A stretch of DNA of 39,037 nt from Escherichia phage pO2. A model generated the notes under the pieces. It searched no databases, was not told the DNA's origin, and worked only from the letters and a program-made list of their open reading frames with translations. The stretch lies in the sequence record OR228483.1. The stretch is one strand, 5' to 3'. Shown in pieces: positions 3,368 through 36,503 of the stretch. Numbering within the stretch: the first letter of the stretch is position 1; every line of letters begins with the position of its first letter. The position numbers and the translations under genes are program-made.

Positions 3368-3405
3368 CATAAAGGCCACTACATACAGTAATGACCTTGA
3401 GTCTA
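3368..3405 (-). promoter_or_regulatory. Conserved hairpin element (candidate RNase III processing site, R18.5-like), copy 1 of 3
   Basis: Shares CATAAAGGCCAC...TGACCTTGAGTCTA with copies at 26053 and 33439; stem pairs with G-U wobbles only in the minus-strand RNA. Confidence 0.45.
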
Positions 3406-3409
3406 ACAC

Positions 3410-3673
3410 TTATTGAACACCATACCCGGTGTCATTATCCTCAGTCGCTGAAAGCACCTTATCGTACTCTGCGTTCAGGGCCTCCATATCAGCCAGCGTC
3501 TTCTCGTCCACGGACACCTTGCTTAACACAAAGTTGTGACGAGCAAGCAGCTTCTCAATGGCGTTGTAAAGCTGGGGTGAACGCTTAGTGTCATCCCGCA
3601 GGTCTTGCAGCATGAGTCGAGCACGTTCAGTATCTAGCATTAAGAGGAACTTCTCTAAGTCCATCTGCGTCAT
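3410..3673 (-). CDS. gp18: Terminase small subunit (DNA maturase A)
   Basis: 87 aa, T7 gp18-like size and position; AAAGGAGG before ATG; start overlaps holin stop (ATGA). Confidence 0.85.
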   Translation of the reverse strand: MTQMDLEKFLLMLDTERARLMLQDLRDDTKRSPQLYNAIEKLLARHNFVLSKVSVDEKTLADMEALNAEYDKVLSATEDNDTGYGVQ

Positions 3674-3864
3674 GTTTTACCACCTCCTTTAATCGTTTTG
3701 TAGACTAGCACACCAATCTGGACAACGGTGTACGCGATAGCTGCAACGTAGAACCATTCGTTTAGTGTAAGTCCGAAGAAGAACCGACTGGCACCATCAG
3801 CCGCAGCGGTCCCGACGATAGGAGAGGCTTTAAGGACCTCATTCTTGAAGTCTAACTCAATCAT
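3670..3864 (-). CDS. gp17.5: Class II holin
   Basis: 64 aa; FFFGLTLNEWFYVAAIAYTVVQIG closely matches T7 gp17.5; GGAGG before ATG. Confidence 0.85.
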   Translation of the reverse strand: MIELDFKNEVLKASPIVGTAAADGASRFFFGLTLNEWFYVAAIAYTVVQIGVLVYKTIKGGGKT

Positions 3865-4022
3865 AAAACCTCCATTGTTAAACGGGTCGTCCTTGACCCA
3901 AAGTTGTTACCCTACGTTGGTTAGCGTGTAGTTAGCCTCTACCTCCACAACCTTCTAACATCTACACCCCACTCCTCACCCTATTCATGGATAACCACCT
4001 CAGCGAATCCATGCGTACATTT

Positions 4023-6053
4023 CTAGCGTCGGATGGCCTGTACCATCAAGTCACCAAGAAGAGTAACACTACCACCTGCACTTAAGTTCTTAATGTACAC
4101 ATTACATAAATTCTCCCCTATTGGCTTGAGAATAATTGAACATGACTTAACATCAAAGGTAGCACCATACACAAGCACATCCCCCTTAGTTGGCTTGTAG
4201 TCACCAGTGAGGGTAATATTACCGGCATTCAGGTCAGCACCTGGTTCAAGCGCAGTGTTAACTGCAAGAGTACCTTTGGCTACAACTCCGTTGTTGCTAC
4301 ACCATCCGACCGTGACTGTTGGAACAAAGACTGTGTTGTCATACTCAATCAAACTGTTACCTAGTGCAGCCAGTGACGCCCCACCCGTAGCACCAGTCCA
4401 CAACTTCAATCTAGTAGTTCCAAGCTTAACTCTAGCATCCCCAGAAGACAGGACTGGGTACATGAATACAGCAGTAGACGTCAGGTCTTCCCCGAAGAAG
4501 ATACCATCAACAGTAACGCGAGAACTTTCATGTGCTCGTAAGAAGTAAGCCTCCCCAGAACTAGCCAGAACTTTGTGGGAATGTAGTGCATATCCGTTAA
4601 GTGTTACTGTTGAGTCCCCATGAATATATATAGAGGCATGTCCATTATGATGAATCTCACAGTTCTCGCTGTACATGCCATTTATTACCATACCTTTACA
4701 GTTGTTAATATCAAAAGCCTGTAGACCTTGTATATCATTACAGCCGTCCATTGCACAATTGTTCATAGTCATGTTGTACACGTTTGCAAAATTGAACGCC
4801 TGATAACAATTAAGTGCGTAGCATGTATCCATTAGGACTGTAGTACCAATATGCTTACGGAAACCTTCCCAGCAATTAATCGCCAATACGTTACGCATGG
4901 TATACTGAAAAGCCCCTGTCACGTCATGAATACCAAAGTACGCACCACGTACTATGATGTTCTCAATGATAAATTGTGAAGGCCATGCTGTCTGCGATGC
5001 ATCACCAATATCAATACCTTTGCGACCACCATAGTTGTCTGGCTTGTTCTCACCATAATCAATGAATAAACCGCCTAAGTATCCACCCATGGAGTATCCA
5101 GAGTTAACGTCATACTTAAAAGCTGCTTCATTGTGAGAGATTGCTAGGATTGTACCAAGACTTGGTGATGGAGATATTCCCCCACCTTTAATAACTTGGT
5201 TCTTAAAGTACAAAGTCTCTTTAATGATGTATATACCAACGGGGATATATAGATTCTTTCCTGTTGCTAGTGCTGCCTTGAAAGCCTCTGTATCATCCGC
5301 AGAACCATCACCTTTAGCACCCCATCCGCGAACATCACCCTCATCTCGCCAGCGTGCCATCTGTAATTCTGGGTAGAGTATTGCCCCTTCCGGGTTTGAA
5401 ATCTGACTTCTTAAAGCAGCATCACCAACACTAACCCACGCACCTAATCCAATCCCACCGGAAGTTTCAGGAGTTGAACCAGCAGGAACGTTCTTTGGAA
5501 GCGTACCATCCCAGCGGTAATAATCACCATCCTCTTCCCATAGCAGGACCTCGCTCCATGTTGTAACGTTGTAGCCTTTCTCGAAGGAGCGACGGGTAAT
5601 ATAACCAATTAGACCAGCCTCCCTGATACTCTCAGCGATTCGTCGTGCTTCGTCCTCGCTATCCTTAGCGTTGCCAGCAGAGCTACCAGCAGCATCGGCA
5701 TATTCCTTCGCTAAGTCAACCGTTTGGTCTCTACCTTCTTCTGCAATATGGATAGCCTGAAGCTCTGAATTGGTCAGGTCACTAGCTGTCAACACTGAGC
5801 CATTCCTGAAGTCTACCACTAAGTCAGTTCCAGTCTGACGGTGAATACGAACGATGTCGAAACCTGATTGGTCAACCAACATCTCAATCATCGTTGGATT
5901 AAGGAATCGGTAATCTCGACCAACTTCCAGTACACGGTTCAGGGTAAGGTTAGAGCTATTCACCAGCGTAACAACAACAAACGTTCTGGCTAGGTAGTCG
6001 AACTCAATCCTGTACTGAGTGTTTCCTGAAGGGAATTGTGTAATCGTGGACAT
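4023..6053 (-). CDS. gp17: Tail fiber / tailspike: T7 gp17-like N-terminal adaptor domain fused to a parallel beta-helix (pectate-lyase-type) domain, probable polysaccharide depolymerase
   Basis: N-terminal ~120 aa resemble T7 gp17 (FDYLARTFVVVTL, DYRF); downstream GWGAKGDGSADDTEAFKAAL motif and repeated N/G/C-rich beta-helix-like segments; AAAGGAGG before ATG. Confidence 0.85.
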   Translation of the reverse strand: MSTITQFPSGNTQYRIEFDYLARTFVVVTLVNSSNLTLNRVLEVGRDYRFLNPTMIEMLVDQSGFDIVRIHRQTGTDLVVDFRNGSVLTASDLTNSELQAIHIAEEGRDQTVDLAKEYADAAGSSAGNAKDSEDEARRIAESIREAGLIGYITRRSFEKGYNVTTWSEVLLWEEDGDYYRWDGTLPKNVPAGSTPETSGGIGLGAWVSVGDAALRSQISNPEGAILYPELQMARWRDEGDVRGWGAKGDGSADDTEAFKAALATGKNLYIPVGIYIIKETLYFKNQVIKGGGISPSPSLGTILAISHNEAAFKYDVNSGYSMGGYLGGLFIDYGENKPDNYGGRKGIDIGDASQTAWPSQFIIENIIVRGAYFGIHDVTGAFQYTMRNVLAINCWEGFRKHIGTTVLMDTCYALNCYQAFNFANVYNMTMNNCAMDGCNDIQGLQAFDINNCKGMVINGMYSENCEIHHNGHASIYIHGDSTVTLNGYALHSHKVLASSGEAYFLRAHESSRVTVDGIFFGEDLTSTAVFMYPVLSSGDARVKLGTTRLKLWTGATGGASLAALGNSLIEYDNTVFVPTVTVGWCSNNGVVAKGTLAVNTALEPGADLNAGNITLTGDYKPTKGDVLVYGATFDVKSCSIILKPIGENLCNVYIKNLSAGGSVTLLGDLMVQAIRR

Positions 6054-6099
6054 TATGCCTCCTTTGTGATTTAAATGGAGACCTATGGTAGCGCCTCCA

Positions 6100-6122
6100 G
6101 TTTCCTATAGTGATAGTTTAGT
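6100..6122 (-). promoter_or_regulatory. Phage RNA polymerase promoter (phi17-like)
   Basis: + strand CCTATAGTGATAGTTTAG; overlaps gp16 stop codon. Confidence 0.65.
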
Positions 6123-9100
6123 CCTTGATGTGGATACCTTGCTCCTCAAACATTCCAAGCAACAGCTTCTGGGTAATGGGGTCGTTCGGAACCAGTTCAC
6201 GGAACGTATTATACATCCCGGTCATGTAGTCACGCTCGTTGACACGAGTATCAGCCTTGAGGTAGCCAGCCAAGTTATAAGCAGAAACGCCAACGTTAGC
6301 AGCATATCCGAAAGCTGGAACCTGCTCCAAGAAGTTACCAACAACATTCATCACAGGGTCACTTGTAGCTGCACCAAACGTGATGGCACGTTCAGGCTTC
6401 TCTGTAGGCGAACGAGGTAGGATAGACGAACGGAGCATCTTAGTGTCCTCATACCCAGCGATGCCACCTAGAATGTTAGCTACCCCAAGTGGTCCACCCA
6501 GATGTGAACTACGGGACAGGGCCGCATAGGCAATCATCGTTGGGTCCAGAGCTTGCTTGAGATAATCTCGGTCTCGACCGTCCTGCATAGCGTAAGCCTT
6601 GACGTGCGCCTGAGCCATGTAGTAGATACCAGCCAGACCCATAGACATCACAGTAGACAGTGCAGCGTCCATCGCTCGGTTGTTCTTCGTGGCGTTATAG
6701 AATGTTCGCATGGTTCGACCATTGATGGACTTGATGACGAAGTTCTTAAACTGAAGGACAGTCTTAGCGAGAGGACCATAAGCCTTGGCGTCCATGTTGG
6801 ACAGCTTATGAGGACGGAGTAACGTTTCGTCAGCGATGGTATCACCCATACGCCATAGGTCCATAGCCCTTGGGTCCTGACTGAACGCCTTCTTATCCTT
6901 GATGGTGTACTTCCCGTCTGGACCACGAGTCACTGACTCACGGATGAGGGACTTAATGCCCTTCCACTGCTCGTCAGAGATACCAGCGGTCTTAAGCCAG
7001 CGGTCATCGAACTTACGCTTACTACCAGTCAGGCTATGCTCCACGATGTCAGACAGGAAGCCTTGACGTCCAGCATCTAACAGGTAGTTGGTCGTACCGT
7101 TGAGGACTTTAGTGAACGGAGAGCGTACTGCAAGTTCACCAGTGTAATACTTGACAGTTCCCAGAGCTGTAGCTGCCCCGCGACCTAGGTCACTGTAAGA
7201 CCGCAGACGGTCAATGACATCCTGTTTAGACGGACGGATTGAGTCATCCAGTTCCTTACCGAAGATAACATTGTGCAGGTCCTTAATCTCTGAGGCCCCA
7301 ACCTTCTTGTTACGGAAGGCTAGGTCACGGAAAATTGGGACTCCATGCAGCATTGCACGAACGTTGCCACGAGCCAGCATACCACCAATCTCCGTTAAGT
7401 TCTGAACACCCATGTAGGCATTCTTAGCGAAGAACGATAGGTCTGTCATTGTGCGCATCACGGTAGCGAAGGCTGCATCATCAGCACCATCACGTCGAGC
7501 ACGACCAGTGAGAATCTTCAGGGTGTCACGTAAGGTAGATACTTCACCTTTCAACTTACCGTCATCCCCAGCCTTGTTCATCATGGTCTCAACCAAGTCC
7601 TTCATGTCCTTCGTGGTCTTTCCTGTACCAGCCATGATAGCAATGTCACCATTGACTCGACGGTTGTAGGCCGGGACAATCTTGTCCATGTCCCACTCAC
7701 GCAGGTTGTTGACACTGAAGGTCTGACCGTTAGGTAGGACGATTGACATATCGCTATCGAACAGGTTACGAGCCTCAAGGAAGCTGTTGTTCTCCAGACC
7801 CACCAGACCATTGATGTTCTCTTCCATTACGGATGAACGCTCGAACTGCTCGGTGTGAGAGATACCATAAGCCTTATCGTTGGCGTACTTATCGACCGCA
7901 GCCGCAAGTCCTTCTGGAGTCAACGTAGGGTCAGCCTCTAAGAGTGCCTCGTCCACACGTTTCTTGACCTCAGGTCGAGACGCATAGCTGGTCAACCATG
8001 ACTTCTTGATGGCCTCCTGTAGTGCCTCTGGACTCCCAAGCTCCTTGATGTACAGCTCCTTCATCTGGTTGCTATACACATGCGGGACGTAGGTTCCCTT
8101 GAAGCGGCTACCCGGAAAGATAGACTGAGCGTCTGGACGACCAAACATCGCCGGGTTCTCCATCATCTCACGCTTGGCGTCAAACTGGTTCTTCAGCAGG
8201 TCATATACTTTCAGTTCTCCCGGAGTCAGTTCAGCCTTCAGGTTCCCACTTCCGTCTTCAATAGCCATAGACACACGCTGGTAGATGTCCTGACGGAATG
8301 CGCCAGAGTCTCGCCAGAATGCTGTCTGGAAGTATGGGTCCTTGAGCGCCTCAGTAACCGCGTCGTCGATGTCGTTGTAGAACCGATGGTCCACAGCACG
8401 AAGTCTCTCAAATACGTCTGACGCAGTGGTCCCGATTTTACCTGAGGCCCCTGACTGCATACCAGTTGGTGAACGCACTAAGTCAGCAGCGACTCCACGA
8501 ATCTCAGGGTTCTCTGACCGAAGCAGCTTCAGGCCAATCTCAGTAAGCCCACCAAGGTTCACACCAGCAGCGGCACGTTCAGGCTCAATCACTTCATCAA
8601 AGACTTGACGTGTCTTAGGGTTCAGAGGGTTCTCACCAATCAGGATTGAACCATCTTCCAGTCGTACACTACCCGGCTCGTTCGGAACGTCAGCGAACTT
8701 AACGCCTTGATGACTAAAGGTCTGCTCACCTTCCTGAATAGGGAGACGAGACAGGTCCTGACCATCAACGTTACGAGCGGTCTCACGAGCTTCCAGACGT
8801 GTAGCTGGGCCAGCAAACTCATTAGTGTTGCGACCTAAGGCTCTGCCTAACCCATCAGCGATAGCAGTCATACCACCACCGAAGAGAGCACCACCAAGGA
8901 TAGCTTCAGCCACATGAGCATCACCACCAGCCACTGAGGTACGGGCCATCTCGGACACACCAGCCAGTGCTCCAGATTGAGCAGCCACGGTGAACATCTT
9001 GTTGACCAGCTTACCGCCTTTACCAACCTGTCCAGCGATAGGAACGTATGTCAGAGGGTCTACACCAGCGCCAATCACACCAGCAGCTAACTGAGCACCA

Positions 9101-10005: not shown

Positions 10006-10009
10006 TATG

Positions 10010-12292
10010 TTACTCCTTACTAATTAGTACGTTTGCGATACCCTCCAGTGAGACGTCATTGTACATCCCACCGCGCTTCTCGATGTTGGCCTCTCGGTCA
10101 GCTCGACGTTTGTCACCAGCAGCCTTAGTCCCGACGATACGCGCTCGCTTGTTAGCGTCACGTTCTGCCTGAGCGTATGCGGCATCTTGTGCCTTCTGCT
10201 GTTGTTCGCGGTAGAGTTTACCTACAAGTTCTTTATCGTAGCGAATACGAATAGTCCCCGTAGCGTCTTGGAGGAAGATAGAGCCGTTCTGTTCAACAAC
10301 GGACAACTGAGAGTTCACTACCCAAGGGTTGGCCTTAATGAGCTGCTTACGAGCGGTGTCGATAATGTCTCGACCAACCTGCCACGACTCTGGGTTATCC
10401 CCGACCATAAGCTGGTGTTTGGACACCATGCCGATGGACTTACCATCAGAACCCTCAGACTGGAACGTTACGGTGTTCTCATTCAGCCAGCGTTGAGTCT
10501 GCTGAGTTGCAGCGTCAGCGTTACCTGTACGATAGTACCATGAGTCCCAGACCTTACGAGCACTTGCGTCCAGAGACGTAGGAAGACGCGAAAGGTCCTT
10601 ATTCCGAGAGTCGTTCTTCAACTCCTGCCACGCCTTGTCTGACTCAATGCGCATCTCACGGCTTTGACTTGCAGCTTGCTTATCAGCTTCAATCATCGTC
10701 TGAGGGTCCAGACCCATCTTGTCCATCTGGTCGAACGTAGAGAACAACTGAGCTTGGTCAGGATACAGAGCAGAAAAACTTGAAGGGTCCTGAGTGTAGG
10801 CACGACGAAGAGATTCGAAGCGTTGCATCTTGTCTGGGTCGTACTGCCCACGGATGACCGCAGCTTGCCACTCACCAGCAGCGTCCTGAGTCAGCGTCTG
10901 GAAGGCATTACGGAACGGACCGTTGTTAGTGTCAGCTCTTAATAATGCAACCTTCTGTGCGTCCTTAGCAGCCTCAGGGATGTCCATCTGGTCAATCTGC
11001 TGTAGCTTAGCAGACGCATAGTTGTTCATGTCTGAACGCTTGAACTCTCCTGTGGATTCAGAGACCGGAAGGTCCTCATAGTTGGTGGACACGTTGTCTC
11101 CAGCCAGACGTCGCTGATAAACTTGGTCTATGACCAGTTGCTTGTTCTGGGTCTGGATTAACTTAGTGTTCTCCTTTGCCTGTTCAGCAGACTTACGCTT
11201 GACCGCTTCCAGTAAGCTGGCTTCTGCATTAATAAGCATCTGACGCTGAGGCGTTAGTTCTTCACCCGGCTGAAGCAGGTTGTTCTGCTCCTTGAGTTTC
11301 TGAATCTGGGCCAGACCGATGGTTGGGTCATCCTGAAGAATCGCAGACTGAACGCCTAACGACAAGTCTTCCTGATACTTAGCCACCAGTTTATACTCAG
11401 TACCTTGGGCCTCAACCATAGCAGCATTGAAGACGTCAGGTCCTACAATCTCTTCGATGGTAGCGTCAACACCGTTAAGGGTGATACGCTCGCCACGGAC
11501 TTGCTGTAGGAAGTTTGAGCCTCCTGACTTCTGGATTGCGTCACGGACCGTCTGGGTGATGACCTCTCGTGCTCTCTGGTCCGAAGGTATAGCAGCAGTC
11601 GTCAATCCATCCCGAAGGTAGGCCATGAATGTCTTGCCAGACTCAGGTGAACGCATCAGGTCGCCATCGTTCAGGAATGAGTTCATCTCAATACGAGTGT
11701 TCAACATTGCTGTCTCTTCAGACTGCTTGCTGAAATACTTATTGAAAGACCCATAGATAGCGATGTTGCGGTCTGTGATGTTATCGTTGAACCCACGCTG
11801 GAAGAACTCGTCTGTAGGGTTAATACCCGACTCTTCAGCATAGGACTTAGCGGCATCCTGAAGTCGCTGGTGGCGATACTCTTCCATTTCCTGACGTGTG
11901 CGGAACTCACCGTTCTGAATCTTAACGTTAATCTCGTCGTCTACAGCAAAGGCAGCATTACGACCAGTCTTGACTCGAAGTGCTTCCATAGCGTAAGGGT
12001 CATCCTGATACAGCAATGTGCCGTTCTGGATAGCCTCACGTCTTTGCTGAGGTGTCAGTTTACGGATAATCTCGTTAGACCGCTCGTCGGCCCGTGTCTT
12101 TTCATCGTCCTTGAACTGCTTGTACAATCCAGTCCCAGACTCAACGAAGTTGGTTAACGCACGAGCCAGACCGGAGTCACCAGTCGGAGCCTGAACGCTG
12201 GCTGCTTGATAGTTTACGGCGATAGTTTTACCCGGCGCTCTGCCGCGACCCATAGTCCGATTAGCCAGAGCTGATTCAATATTACTAGCCAT
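10010..12292 (-). CDS. gp15: Internal virion protein C
   Basis: 760 aa, T7 gp15-like size and position; AGAGGAGG before ATG. Confidence 0.85.
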   Translation of the reverse strand: MASNIESALANRTMGRGRAPGKTIAVNYQAASVQAPTGDSGLARALTNFVESGTGLYKQFKDDEKTRADERSNEIIRKLTPQQRREAIQNGTLLYQDDPYAMEALRVKTGRNAAFAVDDEINVKIQNGEFRTRQEMEEYRHQRLQDAAKSYAEESGINPTDEFFQRGFNDNITDRNIAIYGSFNKYFSKQSEETAMLNTRIEMNSFLNDGDLMRSPESGKTFMAYLRDGLTTAAIPSDQRAREVITQTVRDAIQKSGGSNFLQQVRGERITLNGVDATIEEIVGPDVFNAAMVEAQGTEYKLVAKYQEDLSLGVQSAILQDDPTIGLAQIQKLKEQNNLLQPGEELTPQRQMLINAEASLLEAVKRKSAEQAKENTKLIQTQNKQLVIDQVYQRRLAGDNVSTNYEDLPVSESTGEFKRSDMNNYASAKLQQIDQMDIPEAAKDAQKVALLRADTNNGPFRNAFQTLTQDAAGEWQAAVIRGQYDPDKMQRFESLRRAYTQDPSSFSALYPDQAQLFSTFDQMDKMGLDPQTMIEADKQAASQSREMRIESDKAWQELKNDSRNKDLSRLPTSLDASARKVWDSWYYRTGNADAATQQTQRWLNENTVTFQSEGSDGKSIGMVSKHQLMVGDNPESWQVGRDIIDTARKQLIKANPWVVNSQLSVVEQNGSIFLQDATGTIRIRYDKELVGKLYREQQQKAQDAAYAQAERDANKRARIVGTKAAGDKRRADREANIEKRGGMYNDVSLEGIANVLISKE

Positions 12293-12303
12293 TAGTCCTC
12301 CTC

Positions 12304-12891
12304 TTAGCTATGACCTGTAGGTGTGCCTTTAGCAGCCCTAATTGGTGCAGAACCGCCAGAGCTGGATGACCCAGACATTGATTCACCAGCAGCGTAACCT
12401 TGCATCCCGGCGTTAGCAACATTAAGTGCATGAGCCAGTGGGCTGGTCTTGATGATTTTACCTTGACCACGGATAGCAGACTTTGTGTTCTCAATGTTGG
12501 CGATACGGTTCCCGAAGATAGCCGCATAGTCGCGGTTGTAACTTTCGGTAATCCCTGCTCGCTCCTTGACTGTATCTCCTTCGACCTGACGTTCAATCCT
12601 GTCCATAGAGTTACCTTCCAGACCTGACTCAGCCACTGCAGCTCGGACCATCCCCTGATTGCGGATACCGTTTAGAGTGGTCTCTGTCAGTTCAGCCATC
12701 TGCTGCTCCTTCAGGTCTCGCTCCTGCATCTTCAGGTTGGCGTCAGAGTAGTTCATCTGCTTAACCATTTCCTGAGCCTGTCGGTTCTGAGCGTCAATTG
12801 CTGCACCTTCTGCCTTGGCCTGTTGGGATGCGGACATAGTGGCCCCGGCTACAGCCATGATTCCTAGACCGATACTTACGGGTTCACACAT
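12304..12891 (-). CDS. gp14: Internal virion protein B
   Basis: 195 aa; resembles T7 gp14 (LEGNSMDRIERQVEG, YNRDYAAIF); TAAGGAGG before ATG. Confidence 0.85.
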   Translation of the reverse strand: MCEPVSIGLGIMAVAGATMSASQQAKAEGAAIDAQNRQAQEMVKQMNYSDANLKMQERDLKEQQMAELTETTLNGIRNQGMVRAAVAESGLEGNSMDRIERQVEGDTVKERAGITESYNRDYAAIFGNRIANIENTKSAIRGQGKIIKTSPLAHALNVANAGMQGYAAGESMSGSSSSGGSAPIRAAKGTPTGHS

Positions 12892-13346
12892 ACGTCCTCC
12901 TTAGAGATAGTGAATAATTGAAAACGCTCACCAGTTACCGGGCTGATAGTCCAATCATCATGGAACTTAGCCCCAAGCAACTTCAAGAATTTAATGTGAG
13001 ACTTATTGCCTGACCACACGTAGTTCCAGATGGTCCCGTATTGGTCTAACATTAAGTCCCTGTACTCAGAGATACGCTTTATGAACTCTCGCTTCTCTTT
13101 AGGTCTCAGCTTATAGACCAGACCGGAAGTCAAGAACCATACGTTATCCCCTTGGTTTCCACCATAGGCAAACACTTCGCCTACACCGTTCGTTAAAACC
13201 ACAGATGACGGAGATAGGTGCTTAAGCAGTCTTTCAGAGAGACCAACGGTTGACCCGTAGTTTGCTTTGCACTCATTAACATCATCTGCTGAAAGATGCC
13301 ACAGAAAGTAGTGGACATCCGGTTCCGTAGCCTTGCGAATATACAT
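12876..13346 (-). CDS. gp13: Internal virion protein A (gp13-like, by position)
   Basis: 156 aa between gp12 and gp14; AAGGAG before ATG. Confidence 0.6.
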   Translation of the reverse strand: MYIRKATEPDVHYFLWHLSADDVNECKANYGSTVGLSERLLKHLSPSSVVLTNGVGEVFAYGGNQGDNVWFLTSGLVYKLRPKEKREFIKRISEYRDLMLDQYGTIWNYVWSGNKSHIKFLKLLGAKFHDDWTISPVTGERFQLFTISKEDVCVNP

Positions 13347-13365
13347 AAAGTCTCCTTATAACCTT

Positions 13366-13415
13366 AAGGGCCTATAGTCCCTATAGTGATAGTTAAGGTA
13401 AATCTATAGGCCCTT
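13366..13415 (-). promoter_or_regulatory. Perfect 12-bp inverted repeat (AAGGGCCTATAG / CTATAGGCCCTT) enclosing the phi13 promoter; candidate R13-like processing hairpin
   Basis: Arms at 13366..13377 and 13404..13415 read directly; promoter lies in the loop. Confidence 0.45.
13376..13398 (-). promoter_or_regulatory. Phage RNA polymerase promoter (phi13-like)
   Basis: + strand CCCTATAGTGATAGTTAAGG. Confidence 0.65.
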
Positions 13416-13422
13416 CAATAAG

Positions 13423-16346: not shown

Positions 16347-16463
16347 ACTCCCTCCTATCTGTCGTAAGGACTGCATGGTCCGGTTAATAATATAATCGCC
16401 CAGAAACTAACAAATAGTCCCAAGGCTGTAAGTAAGTAAAACATAATCATCCTCACTCTAAGC

Positions 16464-16501: not shown

Positions 16502-16507
16502 TTTCAA

Positions 16508-17945: not shown

Positions 17946-17946
17946 C

Positions 17947-18831
17947 CTACAGGCTTGATGCAGCTACCTTAGCGCGAACTTCCATCGTGTACTTAGCGTC
18001 ACGCAGGTATCGCGGGTCACTCATAGCCTTAATCATGTCAGCCTTGGAGCTGAATGCTTCGGTCTGAGGAGCCTTAGGTGCGACCACAGGTTTAGCCTGA
18101 GTGGTGATGGTTCGCTGAGGTTTAACACCTACAGCTTTACCCAGAGTCTTGCCAGCCAGATTCAGCAGAGCTTTGGTAGTCGCAATGTCCTTACGAACGA
18201 TAGCAGCTTCCAGTGCTTCACGAGTTGACGGGTCGTTGGACTCAAGGTGTGACAGGATGCGATTAAACTGTTCAGCACCACCAGCGTAGCGAACCACACC
18301 AGCAGCATACTGTTCAGCAAGAGCTTCCTGACCACGGACAAACGAATCTACGAAACGCTTGGTGTAACCTGCTTCCTGCAACTTAGCGTAGGATGCGTCA
18401 GACAGCTTACCGTCCTTGGCGTATTCAGCCTTGATAGCGGTAATTTCATCAGCAGTGACCTTGCCAGCTTCTACAGCAGAAGACACCATGTCGTCAAATG
18501 CAGCTTCGTTTTCATCCAGAGCGGTGACACTTTCAGTCAGCTCTTTCGGTGCATCACCTAGTTCGATGAACTCAGGCTGCTCACCATCGGTCTCAGACTC
18601 TTCGTCATCGGACTCGATGTCTTCTTCACCATCGGTCTCTTCGACGTTTTCGTCTTCTTCGGTCGCCTCTTCATTTTCAGCTTCCAGTTGCTTGAAGGTA
18701 ATAGCGTCATCGCCATCACGAACAGCTACGTCCTGTTCAAGCATAGACTTCTGGTGTTCGTTCAGGTCCTCAACAGAACCAGTGATTGCATTAGAGCTAA
18801 CGCCGAACTCGGCATAAACTGATTGAGACAT
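17947..18831 (-). CDS. gp9: Capsid assembly (scaffolding) protein
   Basis: 294 aa, highly acidic, between portal and capsid genes. Confidence 0.85.
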   Translation of the reverse strand: MSQSVYAEFGVSSNAITGSVEDLNEHQKSMLEQDVAVRDGDDAITFKQLEAENEEATEEDENVEETDGEEDIESDDEESETDGEQPEFIELGDAPKELTESVTALDENEAAFDDMVSSAVEAGKVTADEITAIKAEYAKDGKLSDASYAKLQEAGYTKRFVDSFVRGQEALAEQYAAGVVRYAGGAEQFNRILSHLESNDPSTREALEAAIVRKDIATTKALLNLAGKTLGKAVGVKPQRTITTQAKPVVAPKAPQTEAFSSKADMIKAMSDPRYLRDAKYTMEVRAKVAASSL

Positions 18832-20505: not shown

Positions 20506-20516
20506 TCGTCACCTCC

Positions 20517-21162: not shown

Positions 21163-21166
21163 TGTC

Positions 21167-21391: not shown

Positions 21392-21405
21392 AGTCCCTCC
21401 TACAG

Positions 21406-21678: not shown

Positions 21679-21739
21679 CTTGAATCTCCTCTTTAAGTTA
21701 AGACTAAAGTCTATCTTATAGTCATATCTTAGGTCCTAA

Positions 21740-21762
21740 AGTCCCTATAGTGATAGTTTAGT
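21740..21762 (-). promoter_or_regulatory. Phage RNA polymerase promoter (phi6.5-like)
   Basis: + strand GTCCCTATAGTGATAGTTTAGTG. Confidence 0.65.
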
Positions 21763-21814
21763 GTTTCACCTATGGATGACTGTTGGATTGATAGGATATG
21801 ACTATCGGCTAGAC

Positions 21815-21907
21815 TCAGTGTTTAGGGCGGTTGTTCGACCCGAACCACTTGTACATGCAGTAAAGGGCAAGAAGTCCTACCCAGTAAATTACATGGGTGG
21901 TGTCCAT
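21815..21907 (-). CDS. Small hydrophobic protein, 30 aa (gp6.3-like position)
   Basis: ATG at 21907 preceded by AGGAGG; MDTTHVIYWVGLLALYCMYKWFGSNNRPKH; overlaps last codons of gene 6; below ORF-track cut-off. Confidence 0.35.
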   Translation of the reverse strand: MDTTHVIYWVGLLALYCMYKWFGSNNRPKH

Positions 21908-23403: not shown

Positions 23404-23684
23404 TGCTTGACCTCGAATCGCAGGTTGGACACACCGGACTGACCCTCACCAAAGGAGTCTACCAGCTCCTCCTTGATGATCTTCTTGGTGACAATTTCAA
23501 TGGCAGACTCAGGGCCTGACTCTATTGCTGCTTTGACCATAGCCATCTGAAGCCCATCCAGCTTCTCACCATCAGCGTAGGCTTTAGTCATCTCAGCCAG
23601 TTGGCGACACACTGTCTCTTCTCTCTTTGAGCTAACAACCATCTTCAGGTCAAAACTCACACGAATACGTTTAGTAATAGCCAT
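23400..23684 (-). CDS. gp5.5: gp5.5-like protein
   Basis: 94 aa, MAITKRIRVSFD start, position after DNA polymerase. Confidence 0.6.
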   Translation of the reverse strand: MAITKRIRVSFDLKMVVSSKREETVCRQLAEMTKAYADGEKLDGLQMAMVKAAIESGPESAIEIVTKKIIKEELVDSFGEGQSGVSNLRFEVKQ

Positions 23685-23842
23685 TAGTCTTCTCCTTCTT
23701 CGTTATGTTCTTTCAGAATTTCACGAATGTCTCGACTGCACTGTCCACTGAGGTTTGGACTATAACGAGACTCCTCGTGTCCACACCACCAAGCTGACCG
23801 CATCAGGTCTTTGACCTCCTGCTCACTATAAGTTTTAGCCAT
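23684..23842 (-). CDS. Small protein, 52 aa (gp5.3-like position)
   Basis: ATG at 23842 overlaps DNA polymerase stop (TAATG); MAKTYSEQEVKDLMRSAWWCGHEESRYSPN...; stop overlaps gp5.5 start. Confidence 0.35.
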   Translation of the reverse strand: MAKTYSEQEVKDLMRSAWWCGHEESRYSPNLSGQCSRDIREILKEHNEEGED

Positions 23843-26028: not shown

Positions 26029-26052
26029 GGTTAATCCTCCGTTTAGTCTAAT

Positions 26053-26088
26053 CATAAAGGCCACTCGATGTGAATGACCTTGAGTCTA
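26053..26088 (-). promoter_or_regulatory. Conserved hairpin element (candidate RNase III site, R4.7-like), copy 2 of 3
   Basis: CATAAAGGCCAC...TGACCTTGAGTCTA just upstream of the DNA polymerase gene. Confidence 0.45.
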
Positions 26089-26091
26089 GAC

Positions 26092-27971
<1,880 letters not shown>

Positions 27972-28018
27972 TCACTCCTTAATCACGAATGCGAACAAAG
28001 GGACAGGACTTATTGTCC

Positions 28019-28041
28019 CATCCCTAAGGTGATAGTTTAGG
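28019..28041 (-). promoter_or_regulatory. Variant phage promoter (phi4-like), CACCTTAGGG in place of CACTATAGGG
   Basis: + strand TCCCTAAGGTGATAGTTTAGG upstream of gene 4. Confidence 0.5.
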
Positions 28042-28252
28042 CTTTGAAGAACTGAGCCAACTGGTCAGCTTTGGTGTCAGCTTGACGTGCCTTCATGCCA
28101 GCTTCCAGTGACGCGATGGTCAGCTTGTCAGCCAGAGCAGCAGCATCAGCCGCACTGTCAGCAGTCTTCTTTTCTACCTTTCGTTCCAGTACCGCAGCAC
28201 GACGATAACCACGCACCACCAGACGACCAAGAAATTCGATAAGTTTAATCAT
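28037..28252 (-). CDS. Hypothetical protein, 71 aa
   Basis: ORF between HNH endonuclease and primase; Ala/Lys-rich, no recognisable motif. Confidence 0.5.
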   Translation of the reverse strand: MIKLIEFLGRLVVRGYRRAAVLERKVEKKTADSAADAAALADKLTIASLEAGMKARQADTKADQLAQFFKA

Positions 28253-28688
28253 TGAGTTGTTCTCCTAGCCATTCGATGGCTTCATTAGATGTTTTGAAAG
28301 ACTTCGACGTCCTCTCGCCAAAGCGCTGCTTGTGTGCTACATAAGGCTTAGTTCTGCCAGCTCTGTATGCTACACCCTTGATGCCAGACTTTGAGTCCTT
28401 CCTAACGCTGGTGTTGCATACGTTGACTTGCCTAGTCACAATCCTGAGGTTGTCAATCCTGTTGTTATGGCCGTCACGGTCAATATGGTCAACTTCCATT
28501 CCATCTGGTATAGGACCTCCAGTTTTGAGCATCATGATTATGACGTGGCACATTACTGGCTTCCCTTTAACCTTAGTCCTCCAATATCTACCAGCGTCCC
28601 ATCCAGTAGGCTTACCATTTCTGGATAGACCTGAGGGACTAGATGGGTCGATACTAAACTGATTCGCGGTCAGATGTAACCAGTTCAT
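28245..28688 (-). CDS. HNH homing-endonuclease-like protein with C-terminal AP2-like DNA-binding region
   Basis: EVDHIDRDGHNNRIDNLRIVTRQVN HNH motif; C-terminal GIKGVAYRAGRTKPYVAHKQRFGERT...SNEAIEWL; overlaps lysozyme 3-prime end by about 35 nt. Confidence 0.8.
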   Translation of the reverse strand: MNWLHLTANQFSIDPSSPSGLSRNGKPTGWDAGRYWRTKVKGKPVMCHVIIMMLKTGGPIPDGMEVDHIDRDGHNNRIDNLRIVTRQVNVCNTSVRKDSKSGIKGVAYRAGRTKPYVAHKQRFGERTSKSFKTSNEAIEWLGEQLND

Positions 28689-29118
28689 TCTTGGTCCACC
28701 AGCGCTTCACGTCGAAACTTGGACAGGCTTTGGCTGCTACTGAATGATGGGCCATTAGCTCTGCATTAGGGTACTTACTCATAAGCTCCTCCAGCTTGTT
28801 GCGCAGGGAGTTCATCTGGGCCGGAGTGAAGTTAGCTTCAAACTTGCCCTTAGCGTCAATTCCACCTACAAGGCAGACGCCTACAGACCGTGAGTTCCAG
28901 TCCTTAACGTGTGACCCTACGACATTGACCGGGCGACCCTCTTCCACAGTGCCATCTCGCTTGATGATAAAGTGGTAGCCTACGTCCAGCCAGCCTTGCT
29001 GCTTGTGCCACATACGGATGGTCTCTACCCCGATGTCCATATCTGGCTTGGTAGCAGAACAGTGAACGAAGATAGCGTCAGTCCGGGACCGTGGTTTGAA
29101 TTGAACTTTACTTACCAT
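28654..29118 (-). CDS. gp3.5: Lysozyme (N-acetylmuramoyl-L-alanine amidase)
   Basis: 154 aa; near-identical blocks to T7 gp3.5 (DAIFVHCSATKP, GWLDVGYHFIIKRDGTVE, KACPSFD, WTKNELVTSDR). Confidence 0.95.
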   Translation of the reverse strand: MVSKVQFKPRSRTDAIFVHCSATKPDMDIGVETIRMWHKQQGWLDVGYHFIIKRDGTVEEGRPVNVVGSHVKDWNSRSVGVCLVGGIDAKGKFEANFTPAQMNSLRNKLEELMSKYPNAELMAHHSVAAKACPSFDVKRWWTKNELVTSDRESV

Positions 29119-29578
29119 TGTACACCACCAGCTCTACTACGACCAGATTCAGATGTGACTGGAAGCGCTGTGCGTCAGTCGTGTGCATCTGGAGCAACTT
29201 ATGGTTGAAGACGTGAGAGTTGCTAATCTTCACGTACACTTCGTCAGGCTTACCGTGGACGATGAACGTCTGACCTACACCAATCTTGTTGATGGTCAGG
29301 ACTTCACGTTTAACGGTGACAGGAGGGACACTTGAGGCTGGCAGGACTTGCGGTTTATCCTCTACAATTTCCTCAAGATTTGCTTTTTCAACCCACGCCC
29401 CCCACATACCGTCAGGCTGAGTGTTAAAACCTGCTGCTCCGTGCTTGTAGTGGCCCCGCTCAGTGGATTCCACCAGGACAATTCCAGATGCTGGATATGG
29501 GTCTTTCGCACATTTCGTAACGATAGTACCTTTAGGCCACCCGTAGCAACTAACCTTAAGTCTATATTTCTGAGTCAT
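29108..29578 (-). CDS. Hypothetical protein, 156 aa
   Basis: Between endonuclease I and lysozyme; ATG at 29578 overlaps gp3 stop, AAAGGAG upstream; no motif recognised. Confidence 0.6.
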   Translation of the reverse strand: MTQKYRLKVSCYGWPKGTIVTKCAKDPYPASGIVLVESTERGHYKHGAAGFNTQPDGMWGAWVEKANLEEIVEDKPQVLPASSVPPVTVKREVLTINKIGVGQTFIVHGKPDEVYVKISNSHVFNHKLLQMHTTDAQRFQSHLNLVVVELVVYNGK

Positions 29579-30030
29579 CACTTAACTCCTTTCTTCTTGG
29601 GGATGAGGATACCTGAAGGCAGACGTACAGTCGCCTCTCGCAGCCACTCAACCGGGATGAACTTATCGGCATACTTATATCCGTTCTTTTCGCACCATGC
29701 GCCATACGTGGTCGGAGACCCTTTGTATAACTTGGAGCGGGAACTTGAGAACACGAACCGGATGTCTAACTCTGGGTGCTGTTCTCGTACCAGAAGGTGC
29801 TTCTTACGGTCATCACTATCGAAGATACCTTTGGTCTCCACGATGATACCGTTAGGAAGGATAAAGTCTGGTGTGTACTTGTGGTCGGAAGCCGGAATCA
29901 CATAGTTGATATAATGGCTTTCGTACTCCGCTTTGACGCCGTTCTGTTCCAGCCACTGCTGGTTCTTGGCTTCAAGTCCAGAGCGGTAGGCACCCACAGA
30001 GTGCCCCCGTTTTGCAGACCATTGGGCCAT
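29578..30030 (-). CDS. gp3: Endonuclease I (Holliday junction resolvase)
   Basis: 150 aa; strong identity to T7 gp3 (FRSGLE, YVIPAS, YTPDF, PNGIIVETKG, DDRKKHLLVREQHPELDIR). Confidence 0.95.
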   Translation of the reverse strand: MAQWSAKRGHSVGAYRSGLEAKNQQWLEQNGVKAEYESHYINYVIPASDHKYTPDFILPNGIIVETKGIFDSDDRKKHLLVREQHPELDIRFVFSSSRSKLYKGSPTTYGAWCEKNGYKYADKFIPVEWLREATVRLPSGILIPKKKGVK

Positions 30031-30728
30031 TAGAAGTCGTAATCGCCACCAGAGTTGGAGTCATCCCCACCTTCGGAACCATCGTCACCGAAGTCATCAG
30101 ACCCGAAGTCACCATCGGTTGACGCTTTGTAGCCAGTACCGAGGTCTTCATCATCACCCCAGCCACCATCGCCACCAGCACCATCACCTTTCCACTCCTT
30201 CAGTTCTACCAGAAGGCAGGACTCAAGCTGGAGCTTAACGCTTGCACCAGTCGCAGCGTTCCACTTGAACGGCAGGACTTTAAACTTGACCTTCAGCTTT
30301 GAGCCAGCGCCAATATTCGGGACGTCACGGATTAACTTAGCATCGGTGTCGTAGAACCGTAATATGATAGGCTCTGACTTACCATCCTTCAGGTAAGACG
30401 CGAAGCATTTAAACTTCATGGTAACAGTACCGTCACCATTCTCAATCCACGGCATGTCGCCTTCTCGTGGTTCAATAGGCTTCTTGCCACGCTGAACCTG
30501 AGGTGGGTTCTTCTCGTGGTCTGCAAGTGCTCTCGCATACGCATCGTCGTGAATCTTCTGTAAGACATCAATCATCTTACGGACCTTCGGGTTGCTCAGG
30601 TCGAATGTCAGGTTGACTTTGTGTTCACCACGCTCGTTGAACTTGGTGTCTGCTTTGTTCAGCCATGCGTAAGGCTCAACGATGCCAGCTACCGGAGTGG
30701 TGAAAGTCTTCAGTTGCTCTTTAGCCAT
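30030..30728 (-). CDS. gp2.5: Single-stranded DNA-binding protein
   Basis: 232 aa; T7 gp2.5-like (GDMPW, NGDGT, KFKC, GSKLKVK, ASVKLQLES), acidic tail ending DF. Confidence 0.93.
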   Translation of the reverse strand: MAKEQLKTFTTPVAGIVEPYAWLNKADTKFNERGEHKVNLTFDLSNPKVRKMIDVLQKIHDDAYARALADHEKNPPQVQRGKKPIEPREGDMPWIENGDGTVTMKFKCFASYLKDGKSEPIILRFYDTDAKLIRDVPNIGAGSKLKVKFKVLPFKWNAATGASVKLQLESCLLVELKEWKGDGAGGDGGWGDDEDLGTGYKASTDGDFGSDDFGDDGSEGGDDSNSGGDYDF

Positions 30729-30768
30729 TGGTGTAAATCTCCTAATTTAAAAGTTACGAACTGGACGT

Positions 30769-30791
30769 CTGTCCTACAGTGATAGTTAGGT
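30769..30791 (-). promoter_or_regulatory. Variant phage promoter (phi2.5-like), CACTGTAGGA
   Basis: + strand GTCCTACAGTGATAGTTAGG upstream of gp2.5; overlaps gp2 stop. Confidence 0.5.
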
Positions 30792-30944
30792 CTCAGGACG
30801 AATCCGTCCGACCACAAACCCAGCGTCCTCATACTCTTGGGACTTCAGGGTAGCCTCTTCAAGAGACTTTGCGTACACAGGAACCTCGAAGGACTGAACG
30901 CGACCCTCAAGCTCCACGATGTATTTCTTCTCAACCTCAGTCAT
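30786..30944 (-). CDS. gp2: Inhibitor of host RNA polymerase (gp2)
   Basis: 52 aa, hand-found: [35 protein letters not shown] matches T7 gp2 ([35 protein letters not shown]); AAGGAGA before ATG. Confidence 0.75.
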
Positions 30945-31060
30945 AAAATCTCCTTGTCGAGAATCTCTTCCAGCTTAACAAGTTCCTCTTCGGATAAATC
31001 AGTGAAGTCCACGAACTCCTTAATAAGCTGACACACAAAGTTAATCTGGTCTTGGTTCAT
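30941..31060 (-). CDS. Small acidic protein, 39 aa (gp1.8-like position)
   Basis: ATG at 31060 preceded by AAGGAG; stop overlaps gp2 start; ORF-track version 30941..31138 starts at a GTG with no ribosome-binding site. Confidence 0.4.
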
Positions 31061-31138
31061 AAACCGCGCTCCTTCCATTGGTTGTATAACGTAATGTAGT
31101 CCGGGTTGAGAGTCTTCTCGTACATCTCCCGGCACCAC

Positions 31139-31468
31139 TCACTCGGCAGCATAGCACTTACCTTTATGCAGGTCGAACAGCTCCTGATAGAAGGCTGCTT
31201 TGTTCAGGTCCTTCTCCATAGTAGCCAGCTCGGACTTCTTACCAGCTCGGAGTCGATACTTCAGGACGTTACCCATGCAGAAACCACGGAACTCACTGAC
31301 AGTCATGGACCGGGCGATAATCTCAATGGATTCCACACCATCAAAGACCTGATAGTGGGACGGCTTGTATACACCGTCATCAGCTACAGCAACTGGATGA
31401 GGTGTTGAGATACCGCATCGACAGTCGTCATAACGTTCATGGCACGTCTTGCATTCGTAGTGTGACAT
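31139..31468 (-). CDS. Conserved phage protein with N-terminal Cys cluster (CKTCHERYDDCRC); possibly DUF3310-like
   Basis: 109 aa; GAAGGAGG before ATG; family assignment from memory only. Confidence 0.55.
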   Translation of the reverse strand: MSHYECKTCHERYDDCRCGISTPHPVAVADDGVYKPSHYQVFDGVESIEIIARSMTVSEFRGFCMGNVLKYRLRAGKKSELATMEKDLNKAAFYQELFDLHKGKCYAAE

Positions 31469-31722
31469 TAGAACACCTCCTTCACGACCTCAACGAACAG
31501 ACGAACGCGAGGCCACTTGGTGTAGACCACAGGTACGTTGGCCTCACGCTTCTGGCGAGCCTCTTCAGCTTTGCCGGGAGTAATCAGAGCGTAGACTGTA
31601 GGTGACAGCTTAACGGCCTTCCCGAAGTAGCCCAGCTTCTCATTACACTTAATGCAAGCGAACGGGTTGTGAGACAGGTGGAAGGTATTGGAGTAACGGT
31701 TGAACATTAAGTTCTTAAACAT
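31468..31722 (-). CDS. Hypothetical protein, 84 aa
   Basis: TAAGGAGG before ATG; first gene after the phi1.5-like promoter. Confidence 0.55.
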   Translation of the reverse strand: MFKNLMFNRYSNTFHLSHNPFACIKCNEKLGYFGKAVKLSPTVYALITPGKAEEARQKREANVPVVYTKWPRVRLFVEVVKEVF

Positions 31723-31749
31723 GGTCGGCCTCCTTAGGTCGAGTTATGG

Positions 31750-31772
31750 TTGTCCTATAGTGATAGCTTAGG
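31750..31772 (-). promoter_or_regulatory. Phage RNA polymerase promoter (phi1.5-like)
   Basis: + strand TGTCCTATAGTGATAGCTTAGGG. Confidence 0.6.
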
Positions 31773-31808
31773 GTCAGGCTGGTGGCCCATACGATAGCTT
31801 GCTAGCAT

Positions 31809-31843
31809 AAGCAGAGAAACCCAGCAGTCCGAAGACCACTGGG
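31809..31843 (-). terminator. TE-like intrinsic terminator after the ligase gene (end of early operon)
   Basis: Minus-strand RNA CCCAGUGGUC-UUCG-GACUGCUGGG then UUUCUCUGCUU; 10-bp stem with two G-U pairs. Confidence 0.6.
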
Positions 31844-31854
31844 TTGACGTTTAG

Positions 31855-32970
31855 TTAACTCTTAACGGTCGGATTGTCTTCCGTTCCACGCCAGCACTTG
31901 AAGCTGGGGTGACGAAGTGAACCATCTGGGAACCGCTCCATGAATAGGACTTCACACTGCCAGCCTTCGTATGGGTTATCGAAGTAAGGTTCGTTACCAC
32001 CAATGGCATACGGAGCAAAGATGCCCCCCGCAGCAAGCGGGTCTTCATTGACCTTAGCCGTGAACTCGTCCTTCTGTGTTTCAGTCAGACCGCAGGCGTT
32101 AACCACCATACCGTCTTCCAGTAGCACCTCAAATCCTATGACCTTACCCTCGTTAGCTTTACCCGGAGTCCCCCACACGAGGCCACACACGGTCCCGTCG
32201 ATGGTCTCCTCAGGCTTCATTTTCCACATGCCAGACTTCTTGCCACGCTTGTATTTACCAAGCGGGTCCTTGACTACCAGACCCTCATGTCCTTCCAGCC
32301 GCTTCTCTTCGTACAGGGAGCTGAGCGACTCAAGGTCATAGACCGTGTGTGACTCAGACAGAACCCAGTCGATTTCCGGGAAGTATTTCTGGAGGAGAGG
32401 GATGACAGCTTCGGCCTTCAGGCGTGTGACGCTATGGATAGGACCTTCGGATTTCGGGTCAAGGATGACGTTAAGGTCCACTACACCGTAGACGACCACC
32501 TTGATGAACCTCTGGTCCAGACAGAATGGTAGCTTCTCTTTCGTCCAGTTCTTACCCCAGTGCTCACCAGTTGAAAACTCAAAGTTCTTTTGCTTTACCC
32601 ACTTCGTTCGGATGAGACCTGAAGACGTATTGAAGTCCACTCCTTTTACCATGACCTCACCGTCAATCATCAGACCAGTGCCTTCGTAGCCAGCCTGCTT
32701 CAGGAACCACCGCCAGTCGCTAGCTTTTTGCTGGTCCTCGACGATGTTGTCGATGTTGGTAAGGACTGACAGCCACTCAAGGGCTGGGAGAGGTTTAGAC
32801 TCACGGCTCAACCATTGAGTCTCACCAGTAGGGAAGACCGGAAGATTCAACCGGACACCGTCATACTTCACTTCAGCTTCCAGCGACCCGGCAGCTTCCA
32901 AGGCCTTCTTAACGCCAGACTCAGAGTAATCTACAGCGCGGTGCGGGTTAGTTTTGATAGTCGTTGTCAT
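31855..32970 (-). CDS. gp1.3: ATP-dependent DNA ligase
   Basis: 371 aa; T7 ligase-like (KTNP, EVKYDGVR adenylation lysine, EGLVVKDP, YKRGKKSGMWKMKPE, GSLRHPSF). Confidence 0.95.
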   Translation of the reverse strand: MTTTIKTNPHRAVDYSESGVKKALEAAGSLEAEVKYDGVRLNLPVFPTGETQWLSRESKPLPALEWLSVLTNIDNIVEDQQKASDWRWFLKQAGYEGTGLMIDGEVMVKGVDFNTSSGLIRTKWVKQKNFEFSTGEHWGKNWTKEKLPFCLDQRFIKVVVYGVVDLNVILDPKSEGPIHSVTRLKAEAVIPLLQKYFPEIDWVLSESHTVYDLESLSSLYEEKRLEGHEGLVVKDPLGKYKRGKKSGMWKMKPEETIDGTVCGLVWGTPGKANEGKVIGFEVLLEDGMVVNACGLTETQKDEFTAKVNEDPLAAGGIFAPYAIGGNEPYFDNPYEGWQCEVLFMERFPDGSLRHPSFKCWRGTEDNPTVKS

Positions 32971-33221
32971 TATTTCCAGCTCCTATAAGCGTTCAATTGT
33001 TGTAAGCACCATTGCTCACAGCTAAAGATTTCATCTTTGGTAAATTCGCGGGAGACCAGAAGCCTCCCACCATCTGCTTCAATTACTCTGACCAGAGTTT
33101 TTCCGGGGCACGGCGAGTAATCCATTAGGACATCAAGTCCTGCCTCACTCAGCTCGCGGTGTGTCCGGCCTAACGATGACCACTGGCTGGTGGACGCATC
33201 AAATACCCAACGTCTGCTCAT
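32970..33221 (-). CDS. gp1.2: gp1.2-like protein (dGTPase inhibitor homolog)
   Basis: 83 aa; C-terminal region resembles T7 gp1.2 and ends WK. Confidence 0.7.
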   Translation of the reverse strand: MSRRWVFDASTSQWSSLGRTHRELSEAGLDVLMDYSPCPGKTLVRVIEADGGRLLVSREFTKDEIFSCEQWCLQQLNAYRSWK

Positions 33222-33224
33222 GTC

Positions 33225-33404
33225 TTACGCTCCTACGAAATACTTCTCTCTGTTGACCAGAGAGTCTTTACCTTCAGCGTTACGGAAAGCACCCTTGACA
33301 CCGCCGCCACGCTTGGTCTTGTTCAGCTTGCGGCCCTTCGGAATGTAACCTTCAGTCTGCTGACGTTCACGGATTCGCTCGAAGTTGATAGTGTTCTGAT
33401 ACAT
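33225..33404 (-). CDS. Small basic protein, 59 aa (gp1.1-like position)
   Basis: Hand-found: ATG 33404 preceded by AGGAG; ...KGRKLNKTKRGGGVKGAF...; stop overlaps gp1.2 start. Confidence 0.5.
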   Translation of the reverse strand: MYQNTINFERIRERQQTEGYIPKGRKLNKTKRGGGVKGAFRNAEGKDSLVNREKYFVGA

Positions 33405-33438
33405 GGTGTAGCTCCTGATTGAATGAGTTAGGGTTAAT

Positions 33439-33476
33439 CATGAAGGCCACGACTTTGAGTCATGACCTTGAGTCTA
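33439..33476 (-). promoter_or_regulatory. Conserved hairpin element (candidate RNase III site, R1.1-like), copy 3 of 3
   Basis: CATGAAGGCCAC...TGACCTTGAGTCTA; minus-strand RNA forms a 12-bp stem AAGGUCAUGACU / AGUCGUGGCCUU with G-U wobbles. Confidence 0.5.
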
Positions 33477-36483: not shown

Positions 36484-36503
36484 ACTTAAAGTCCTTGTTA
36501 TTA

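Follow-up and report, generated by a model that had tools for sequence, protein, structure and literature searches.

What is the role of a short repeated element of about 40 nucleotides (nt) that lies between genes at three places in Escherichia phage pO2? We analyzed a stretch of 39,037 nt from sequence record OR228483.1 (hereafter the window), in which the element starts at positions 3368, 26053 and 33439. A preliminary description, made from the sequence alone, had proposed that the three copies form strand-asymmetric hairpins, that each occupies an intergenic gap where phage T7 carries a ribonuclease III (RNase III) site, and that they function as RNA rather than as DNA. Our analysis indicates that the three hairpins are very probably RNase III processing signals of polycistronic phage messenger RNAs (mRNAs), homologous to the sites R18.5, R4.7 and R1.1 of T7 and T3, with cleavage predicted from this homology.

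Each copy of the element consists of two blocks. The first block, CATAAAGGCCAC, occurs without mismatch at 3368 and 26053 and with one mismatch at 33439 (CATGAAGGCCAC), and the second, TGACCTTGAGTCTA, is exact at 3392, 26075 and 33463, so the reported repetition was confirmed. Near-matches to both blocks were far rarer in shuffled sequence. A degenerate pattern, AAGGTY..GRCCTT with a spacer of 8-30 nt, matched the three sites on the minus strand and a palindrome at 585-623 on both strands, and nowhere else in the window.

The genomic context of the three sites is that of a T7-group phage. The first 20 kb of the window are 93-97% identical by megablast to K1F-like phages (Kayfunavirus, Studiervirinae), and phage IME177 is 99.7-100% identical across sites 3 and 1. 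The minus strand carries all the long open reading frames (ORFs); relative to a T7-group genome, the window is therefore given in reverse complement. It also has 11 matches, every one of them on the minus strand, to the core AACTATCACTATAGG of K1F-type phage promoters, for which a consensus is quoted in the annotation of record MZ726794. We identified the flanking ORFs by PHROG searches. Site 1 (R18.5-type; 3357-3411, minus strand) has the terminase small subunit (gp18) and an Rz-like spanin (gp18.5) on its two sides, with the gene 18 stop codon TAA at 3410-3412 and the gene 18.5 ATG at 3306-3308. Site 2 (R4.7-type; 26042-26094, minus strand) follows a small ORF downstream of the primase/helicase, whose stop codon overlaps the first base of the lower stem, and stands directly 5' of the DNA polymerase gene (Shine-Dalgarno GGAGGA, ATG 26029-26031). 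Site 3 (R1.1-type; 33428-33482, minus strand) comes after the RNA polymerase gene, a small ORF and a phage promoter, and before gp1.15, the dGTPase inhibitor gp1.2 and the ligase. This promoter (33479-33501, minus strand; CCTAAACTATCACTATAGGATTA) matches the K1F-type core exactly and leads straight into site 3, the lower stem of which starts with the first transcribed bases; the same promoter-then-hairpin order is found for phi1.1A/R1.1 of T7 and phi1.1/R1.1 of T3. Sites 1, 2 and 3 stand where T7 and T3 have R18.5, R4.7 and R1.1, respectively. The ORF map and the PHROG contexts thus bear out the intergenic placement at T7 RNase III site positions, with the sites located between ORFs and stop codons abutting or overlapping the lower stems.

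We compared the three elements with the sites of T7 and T3. In T7, AAGGTC…GGCCTT occurs at 1441, 5861, 6421 and 13867, with a variant at 36830-36853; a pattern with a fixed 12-nt spacer gave no T7 match because loop lengths differ, whereas the variable-gap pattern succeeded. The T3 record AJ318471 annotates ten stem-loops as 'RNase III recognition site', and no RNase III features are annotated in the T7 records NC_001604 and V01146. The alignment set comprised the three window elements, five T7 sites (R1.1, R4.7, R18.5, R0.5 and R1.3) and seven T3 sites. The aligned sequences share an invariant core, CTCAAGGTC…GTGGCCTT, and a common …TATGATT tail. As RNA, the core CUCAAGGUC…GUGGCCUU(U/C)AUG(A/G)UU is common to the window, the T7 sites and the annotated T3 stem-loops. 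Two details relate individual members to each other. The R18.5-specific sequence UAUGG is common to site 1 and R18.5 of both T7 and T3. At site 2, ACTCAAGGTCATTC…GAGTGGCCTTTATGATT equals T7 R1.1 (5856-5891) except in the apical loop, so that the two are identical throughout the upper stem and the internal loop; the lower stem also differs. The proximal 8-10 base pairs (bp) of all three sites are identical to those of the efficiently cleaved T7 R1.1, with differences in the loop-proximal pairs of sites 1 and 3.

Both the RNAalifold consensus and the single-sequence folds give the same architecture for the minus-strand RNA. The consensus has a 7-bp lower stem, an internal loop with 4 nt on one side and 5 nt on the other, and a 10-bp upper stem, with compensatory changes among paralogues in 9 of the 17 pairs; in the folds of the individual sites the upper stem has 10-11 bp. 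The asymmetric internal loop has ACUC on one side and UAUGA, CAUGA or UAUGG on the other. In 76-nt segments, the minimum free energies (MFE) of the minus-strand RNA of sites 1, 2 and 3 are -23.4, -22.0 and -20.2 kcal/mol (z -3.1, -2.4 and -4.0), compared with -14.3, -13.9 and -17.6 kcal/mol (z -2.0, -0.6 and -1.4) for the plus-strand RNA. Folds computed with DNA parameters are weak, between -6 and -9 kcal/mol (z -0.4 to -2.8). There are 3-4 G.U pairs per hairpin, and each such pair on the minus-strand RNA becomes an A.C mismatch on the opposite strand. Folding of the minus-strand transcripts against shuffled controls, which the preliminary description had suggested as a check, gave a stable structure at every site (z -2.4 to -4.0). 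The strand asymmetry it described is real in both MFE and G.U content, but its statement that the stem is complementary only in the minus-strand RNA was too strong, since the plus strand is weaker yet still structured.

We built two covariance models to assess membership in this family of sites. Model R1 was derived from seven T3, five T7 and the three window sites, and model R2 from 13 T7 and T3 sites with the window sites excluded. Scanning the window with model R2, filters off, returned seven matches, all on the minus strand, with sites 1-3 at E-values of 1e-11 to 5e-9 and the next best match at 12 bits. Sites 1, 2 and 3 score 64.6, 63.8 and 58.5 bits with model R1 and 57.2, 55.9 and 47.1 bits with model R2. 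Model R1 also recovers the annotated T3 R6.5 and three T7 segments that were not used in training, at 853-902, 3101-3150 and 18502-18575, which we take to be R0.3, R1 and R6.5. It gave no spurious strong matches in T7, T3 or K1F. A search of the whole window against Rfam 15 at E ≤ 1 found no matches, from which it follows that there is no curated family for these sites. Partial motif matches at 88-101 and 29551-29564 were rejected as family members: their 3' arm is absent or degraded, and neither has a covariance-model match even at E ≤ 10 with filters off. The alignment, the synteny, the 4-nt/5-nt loop and the model R2 scores all support the proposed correspondence to R18.5, R4.7 and R1.1, with cleavage assigned by homology. 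The description of a family of three members was correct in that the three members are real, although it was an undercount: by covariance model, sites 1-3 are the best-conserved subset of at least seven predicted RNase III-type sites.

The pairing was further evaluated across relatives. Scanning IMG/VR for exact matches to the core pattern yielded 80 loci, mostly on contigs of approximately 40 kb, and application of the model to these loci together with the window, T7, T3 and K1F identified 131 sites, 107 of which are distinct. Among the distinct sites, 95.6% of the cells are standard pairs, versus 27-48% when the 3' partners are slid; compensatory changes on both sides occur in 15 of the 17 pairs, and none of 500 shuffles reached the observed pairing values. 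At one pair, 92 of the 107 sequences have a fixed U.G wobble. We note that the sequences were aligned by fitting them to the model and that the loci were selected by the conserved core, so the informative pairs are those of the lower stem and of the top of the upper stem; these are also the pairs that covary most. The conserved G.U wobbles and the strong covariation support the proposal that the element functions as RNA, on the sense strand, rather than as DNA.

The conservation of the core is itself pronounced. Over 42 positions, the window paralogues are identical at 33-35, about equal to their orthologues in T7 and T3 (27-33 of 42), and the internal loop and proximal stem, CUCAAGGUC…GUGGCCUUUAUGAUU, are kept among paralogues of a single genome as well as in several genera of Studiervirinae. 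This near-invariance exceeds the known needs of RNase III and could reflect a second reader or process, such as a loop-binding phage or host factor, co-transcriptional coupling to the phage RNA polymerase, or homogenisation or recombination between sites that shapes module exchange. We regard such a second reader or process as unlikely.

If the hairpins are processing signals, the following sequence of events is expected from T7. Host and phage RNA polymerases would transcribe through the hairpins on the minus strand, and the RNA would form a bipartite helix of approximately 20 bp, broken by the asymmetric 4-nt/5-nt loop (5' ACUC / 3' UAUGA). RNase III of E. coli would bind this helix. The internal loop would confine the nick to a single strand, on the loop's 3' side. 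The predicted cut, …CCUU(U/C)AU↓G…, falls at 3369/3368 in site 1 (…CCUUUAU↓GG…), 26054/26053 in site 2 and 33440/33439 in site 3. A protective hairpin would remain at the 3' end of the upstream message, and the message downstream (gp18.5/19, DNA polymerase, or gp1.15/1.2/ligase) would gain a short defined leader before its Shine-Dalgarno sequence. The cut was placed from T7 coordinates. Dunn and Studier, in 1983, reportedly gave T7 cleavage coordinates of 1468, 5887, 6448, 13892 and 36856. Each of these lies exactly 3 nt past the GGCCTT/GGTCTT block, and this offset sets the cut at …CCUUUAU↓G…. T7 R1.1 itself, 60 nt long, is a hairpin whose internal loop is asymmetric (4/5); it has one primary site, cut in vivo and in vitro to products of 47 and 13 nt (PMC6121014, PMC4858673). 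In general, internal loops confine cutting to a single phosphodiester, and the hairpins left at the 3' end are protective (PMC1540722).

Several points weigh against assigning a processing role to the three hairpins. Cleavage, the position of the cut and the effects on stability and translation would all follow from homology, and the check on the T7 cleavage coordinates was the 3-nt offset. A tblastn search of the window for the T7 gene 0.7 kinase found no homologue (best E 4.7). As this kinase stimulates RNase III in T7 (PMC4858673), the kinetics of processing may differ from those of T7. Furthermore, T7 grows without RNase III (PMC4858673, PMC6938266), and the fitness role of the sites would thus be modest or conditional.

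Other functions of a conserved intergenic hairpin were weighed against the same observations. The first is a structural RNA that stabilises the mRNA or tunes downstream translation, with RNase III binding without cutting or not cleaving. Covariation indicates that the hairpin structure is clearly under selection, the end of site 2 lies 3-8 nt ahead of the Shine-Dalgarno sequence of the DNA polymerase gene, and variants of R1.1 that bind the enzyme yet resist cleavage exist (PMC1540722), all of which would be compatible with such a role. However, the internal loop and the proximal stem are identical to those of the efficiently cleaved T7 R1.1, no substitution was seen in these parts at the positions that mark the cleavage-resistant variants, and the host is E. 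coli, as with T7. We therefore consider a purely structural role quite improbable.

A second possibility, that the hairpins are rho-independent transcription terminators, is raised by an existing annotation. In record MZ726794 (phage ASO2B), the orthologue of site 3 (733-769 of locus L004) is labelled 'rho-independent terminator; discovered using WebGeSTer', a feature that coincides with our model match, and the tail after the hairpin is somewhat U-rich (UUUAUGAUU). In a terminator scan requiring a stem followed by at least five U in eight positions, however, none of the three hairpins passes, the tail UAUGAUUA having four U in eight. The position of the sites is also difficult to reconcile with termination. 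Neither the stretch from site 2 to the DNA polymerase gene (nearest promoters at 28023 and 21744) nor that from site 1 to genes 18.5/19 (nearest at 6104 and 1002) contains a phage promoter, so these genes must be transcribed through the hairpins, and the essential ones need read-through. A covarying lower stem and a conserved internal loop would be unnecessary for a terminator, and T7 R0.5 and R1.1 serve as functional processing sites around test terminators in a measurement device (PMC3643576). Termination is accordingly a very improbable function of these hairpins, and the terminator label on the R1.1-type hairpin of MZ726794 is probably an annotation error, one that related records could inherit.

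The remaining alternative, a role at the level of DNA as protein-binding palindromes, as recombination or module-boundary repeats or as replication signals, would account for a sequence of about 40 nt repeating at gene-module boundaries, for the extra genes that relatives carry inserted beside the sites and for the location of site 3 in the region of the T7/T3 primary origin, but is the least credible of all, given that a U.G wobble is fixed in 92 members (with G.U becoming A.C on the other strand), the DNA folds are weak, every member has the same orientation relative to transcription, and the stem changes are compensatory, which fits RNA pairing and not a fixed protein-binding sequence. The inserted genes include a 144-amino-acid (aa) ORF of phiYIO1-1 (437-938 of locus L126) between the R4.7-type hairpin and gene 5, which is the position of T7 gene 4.7, and a 155-aa ORF of CHRF_30116.2 (387-919 of locus L127) just 5' of the R1.1-type hairpin. 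No duplicated hairpins were found around inserted genes in relatives; a single hairpin is kept each time.

Taking the hairpins as probable RNase III signals, we examined the four further matches of model R2, all on the minus strand among the small early genes 5' of the RNA polymerase gene. They have the same fold architecture as sites 1-3, with z-scores of -2.7 to -6.4. The first (38699-38758) is 5' of the first early gene, which is gp0.2-like; it scores 28.0 bits with model R2 (E 3e-4) and 21.2 bits with model R1, has the core CUACAGG…CCUGACUGAU and folds at -23.8 kcal/mol (z -2.7). The second, at 38383-38435, lies between the gp0.2-like gene and an ocr-like gene 0.3, which is the R0.3 position (49.2 bits with model R2, 45.8 with model R1; -22.9 kcal/mol, z -3.7). 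The other two stand 5' and 3' of a 123-aa ORF at 37265-37636: the former (37665-37716) scores 40.4 and 40.6 bits with models R2 and R1 and folds at -26.9 kcal/mol (z -6.4), and the latter (37209-37262) scores 36.8 and 33.0 bits and folds at -24.9 kcal/mol (z -4.6). This minus-strand ORF, flanked on both sides by RNase III-type hairpins, had no PHROG match. Since K1F has different small genes in this early region, the early hairpins appear to delimit exchangeable early-gene cassettes.

Three other minus-strand hairpins recall sites of T7 or T3. An 11-bp hairpin at 27987-28025 (GGGAUGGGAC…GUCCUGUCCC; -18.7 kcal/mol, z -3.8) stands immediately after a promoter-like site (28023-28037) and 5' of the primase/helicase gene. 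The sequence flanking it on the 3' side, CCCTTTGTTCGCATT, equals T7 11198-11212 and resembles the annotated T3 R3.8. Undetected by the covariance models, the hairpin is likely an RNase III site of R3.8 type that belongs to another sequence class, judging from these similarities. At 13366-13415, a perfect 12-bp stem (AAGGGCCUAUAG / CUAUAGGCCCUU; z -3.6) encloses a phage promoter (13380-13394) 5' of gene 13, a layout like that of the annotated T3 R13, whose hairpin surrounds phi13. Between gene 6 and gene 6.5, a long bipartite hairpin (21703-21819; -33.6 kcal/mol, z -3.7) carries a promoter (21744-21758) in its loop; it is analogous to R6.5 of T7 and T3, where phi6.5 lies in the loops, and its sequence is unlike the core family.

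We also recorded three features of other kinds. On the minus strand at 36484-36571, a phage promoter stands immediately 5' of the RNA polymerase gene, and the transcript starts with GGACUCAAGGUC, the 5' half of the RNase III core; the 3' arm and a stable fold are absent (z +0.2). No covariance-model match in the window corresponds to T7 R1, which lies immediately before gene 1, and the segment may be a decayed R1-type site. The palindrome detected by the degenerate pattern belongs to a perfect 12-bp inverted repeat at 583-625 (CTAAGGTCAGTA…TACTGACCTTAG, both strands), near the right genome end and downstream of gene 19.5. Its RNA fold is stable (-24.9 kcal/mol, z -3.5) and fully symmetric, unlike that of the RNase III sites. 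Close to the genome end, a dense minus-strand array of short CCTACAGT / ACCTACAGTC repeats at 100-330 is probably a T7-type repeat array adjoining the terminal repeat or concatemer junction.

The sites fit the established class of T7/T3 RNase III signals, and we see in them no new biology beyond those two phages. Our literature search joining Kayfunavirus with RNase III found no reports; the K1F genome paper (Scholl & Merril 2005) was outside that search. The main value of the result is for annotation, because the GenBank records of K1F-like phages omit the sites or call one of them a terminator. K1F-like phages serve phage therapy and engineering. For engineers, the sites show predicted transcript cut points and message-protecting 3' hairpins, and for gene insertion they mark the intergenic sequences best kept intact.

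We compared the sites with those of the best-known relatives. T7 R1.1, R4.7 and R18.5, as well as R0.3, R0.5, R1 and R1.3, have the same core and the same succession of 7 bp, 4/5 loop and 10 bp. The sense-strand orientation, the gene neighbourhoods and the promoter-then-hairpin arrangement at R1.1 are also as in T7. Unlike in T7, the lower stems and apical loops differ, through compensatory changes; gene 5 follows the R4.7-type site with neither gene 4.7 nor phi4.7 in between; the models detect no site immediately 5' of gene 1, nor at the position of R1.3, where genes 1.2 and 1.3 adjoin; and the four early sites flank different small early genes.

In T3 (AJ318471), R1.1 (6003-6053), R4.7 (12970-13018) and R18.5 (35038-35088) align column for column with the three sites. 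As in pO2, T3 R4.7 is directly before gene 5 and T3 R18.5 overlaps the end of gene 18. The two phages differ in promoter specificity, which is K1F-type in pO2 and T3-type in T3, and T3 has R0.5, R1 and R1.3 at positions without sites in pO2. Orthologous hairpins occur in K1F (AM084414) and other Kayfunavirus genomes: K1F carries near-identical sites at 36442-36496, 12850-12902 and 5567-5621, plus two early sites, all left unannotated in its record.

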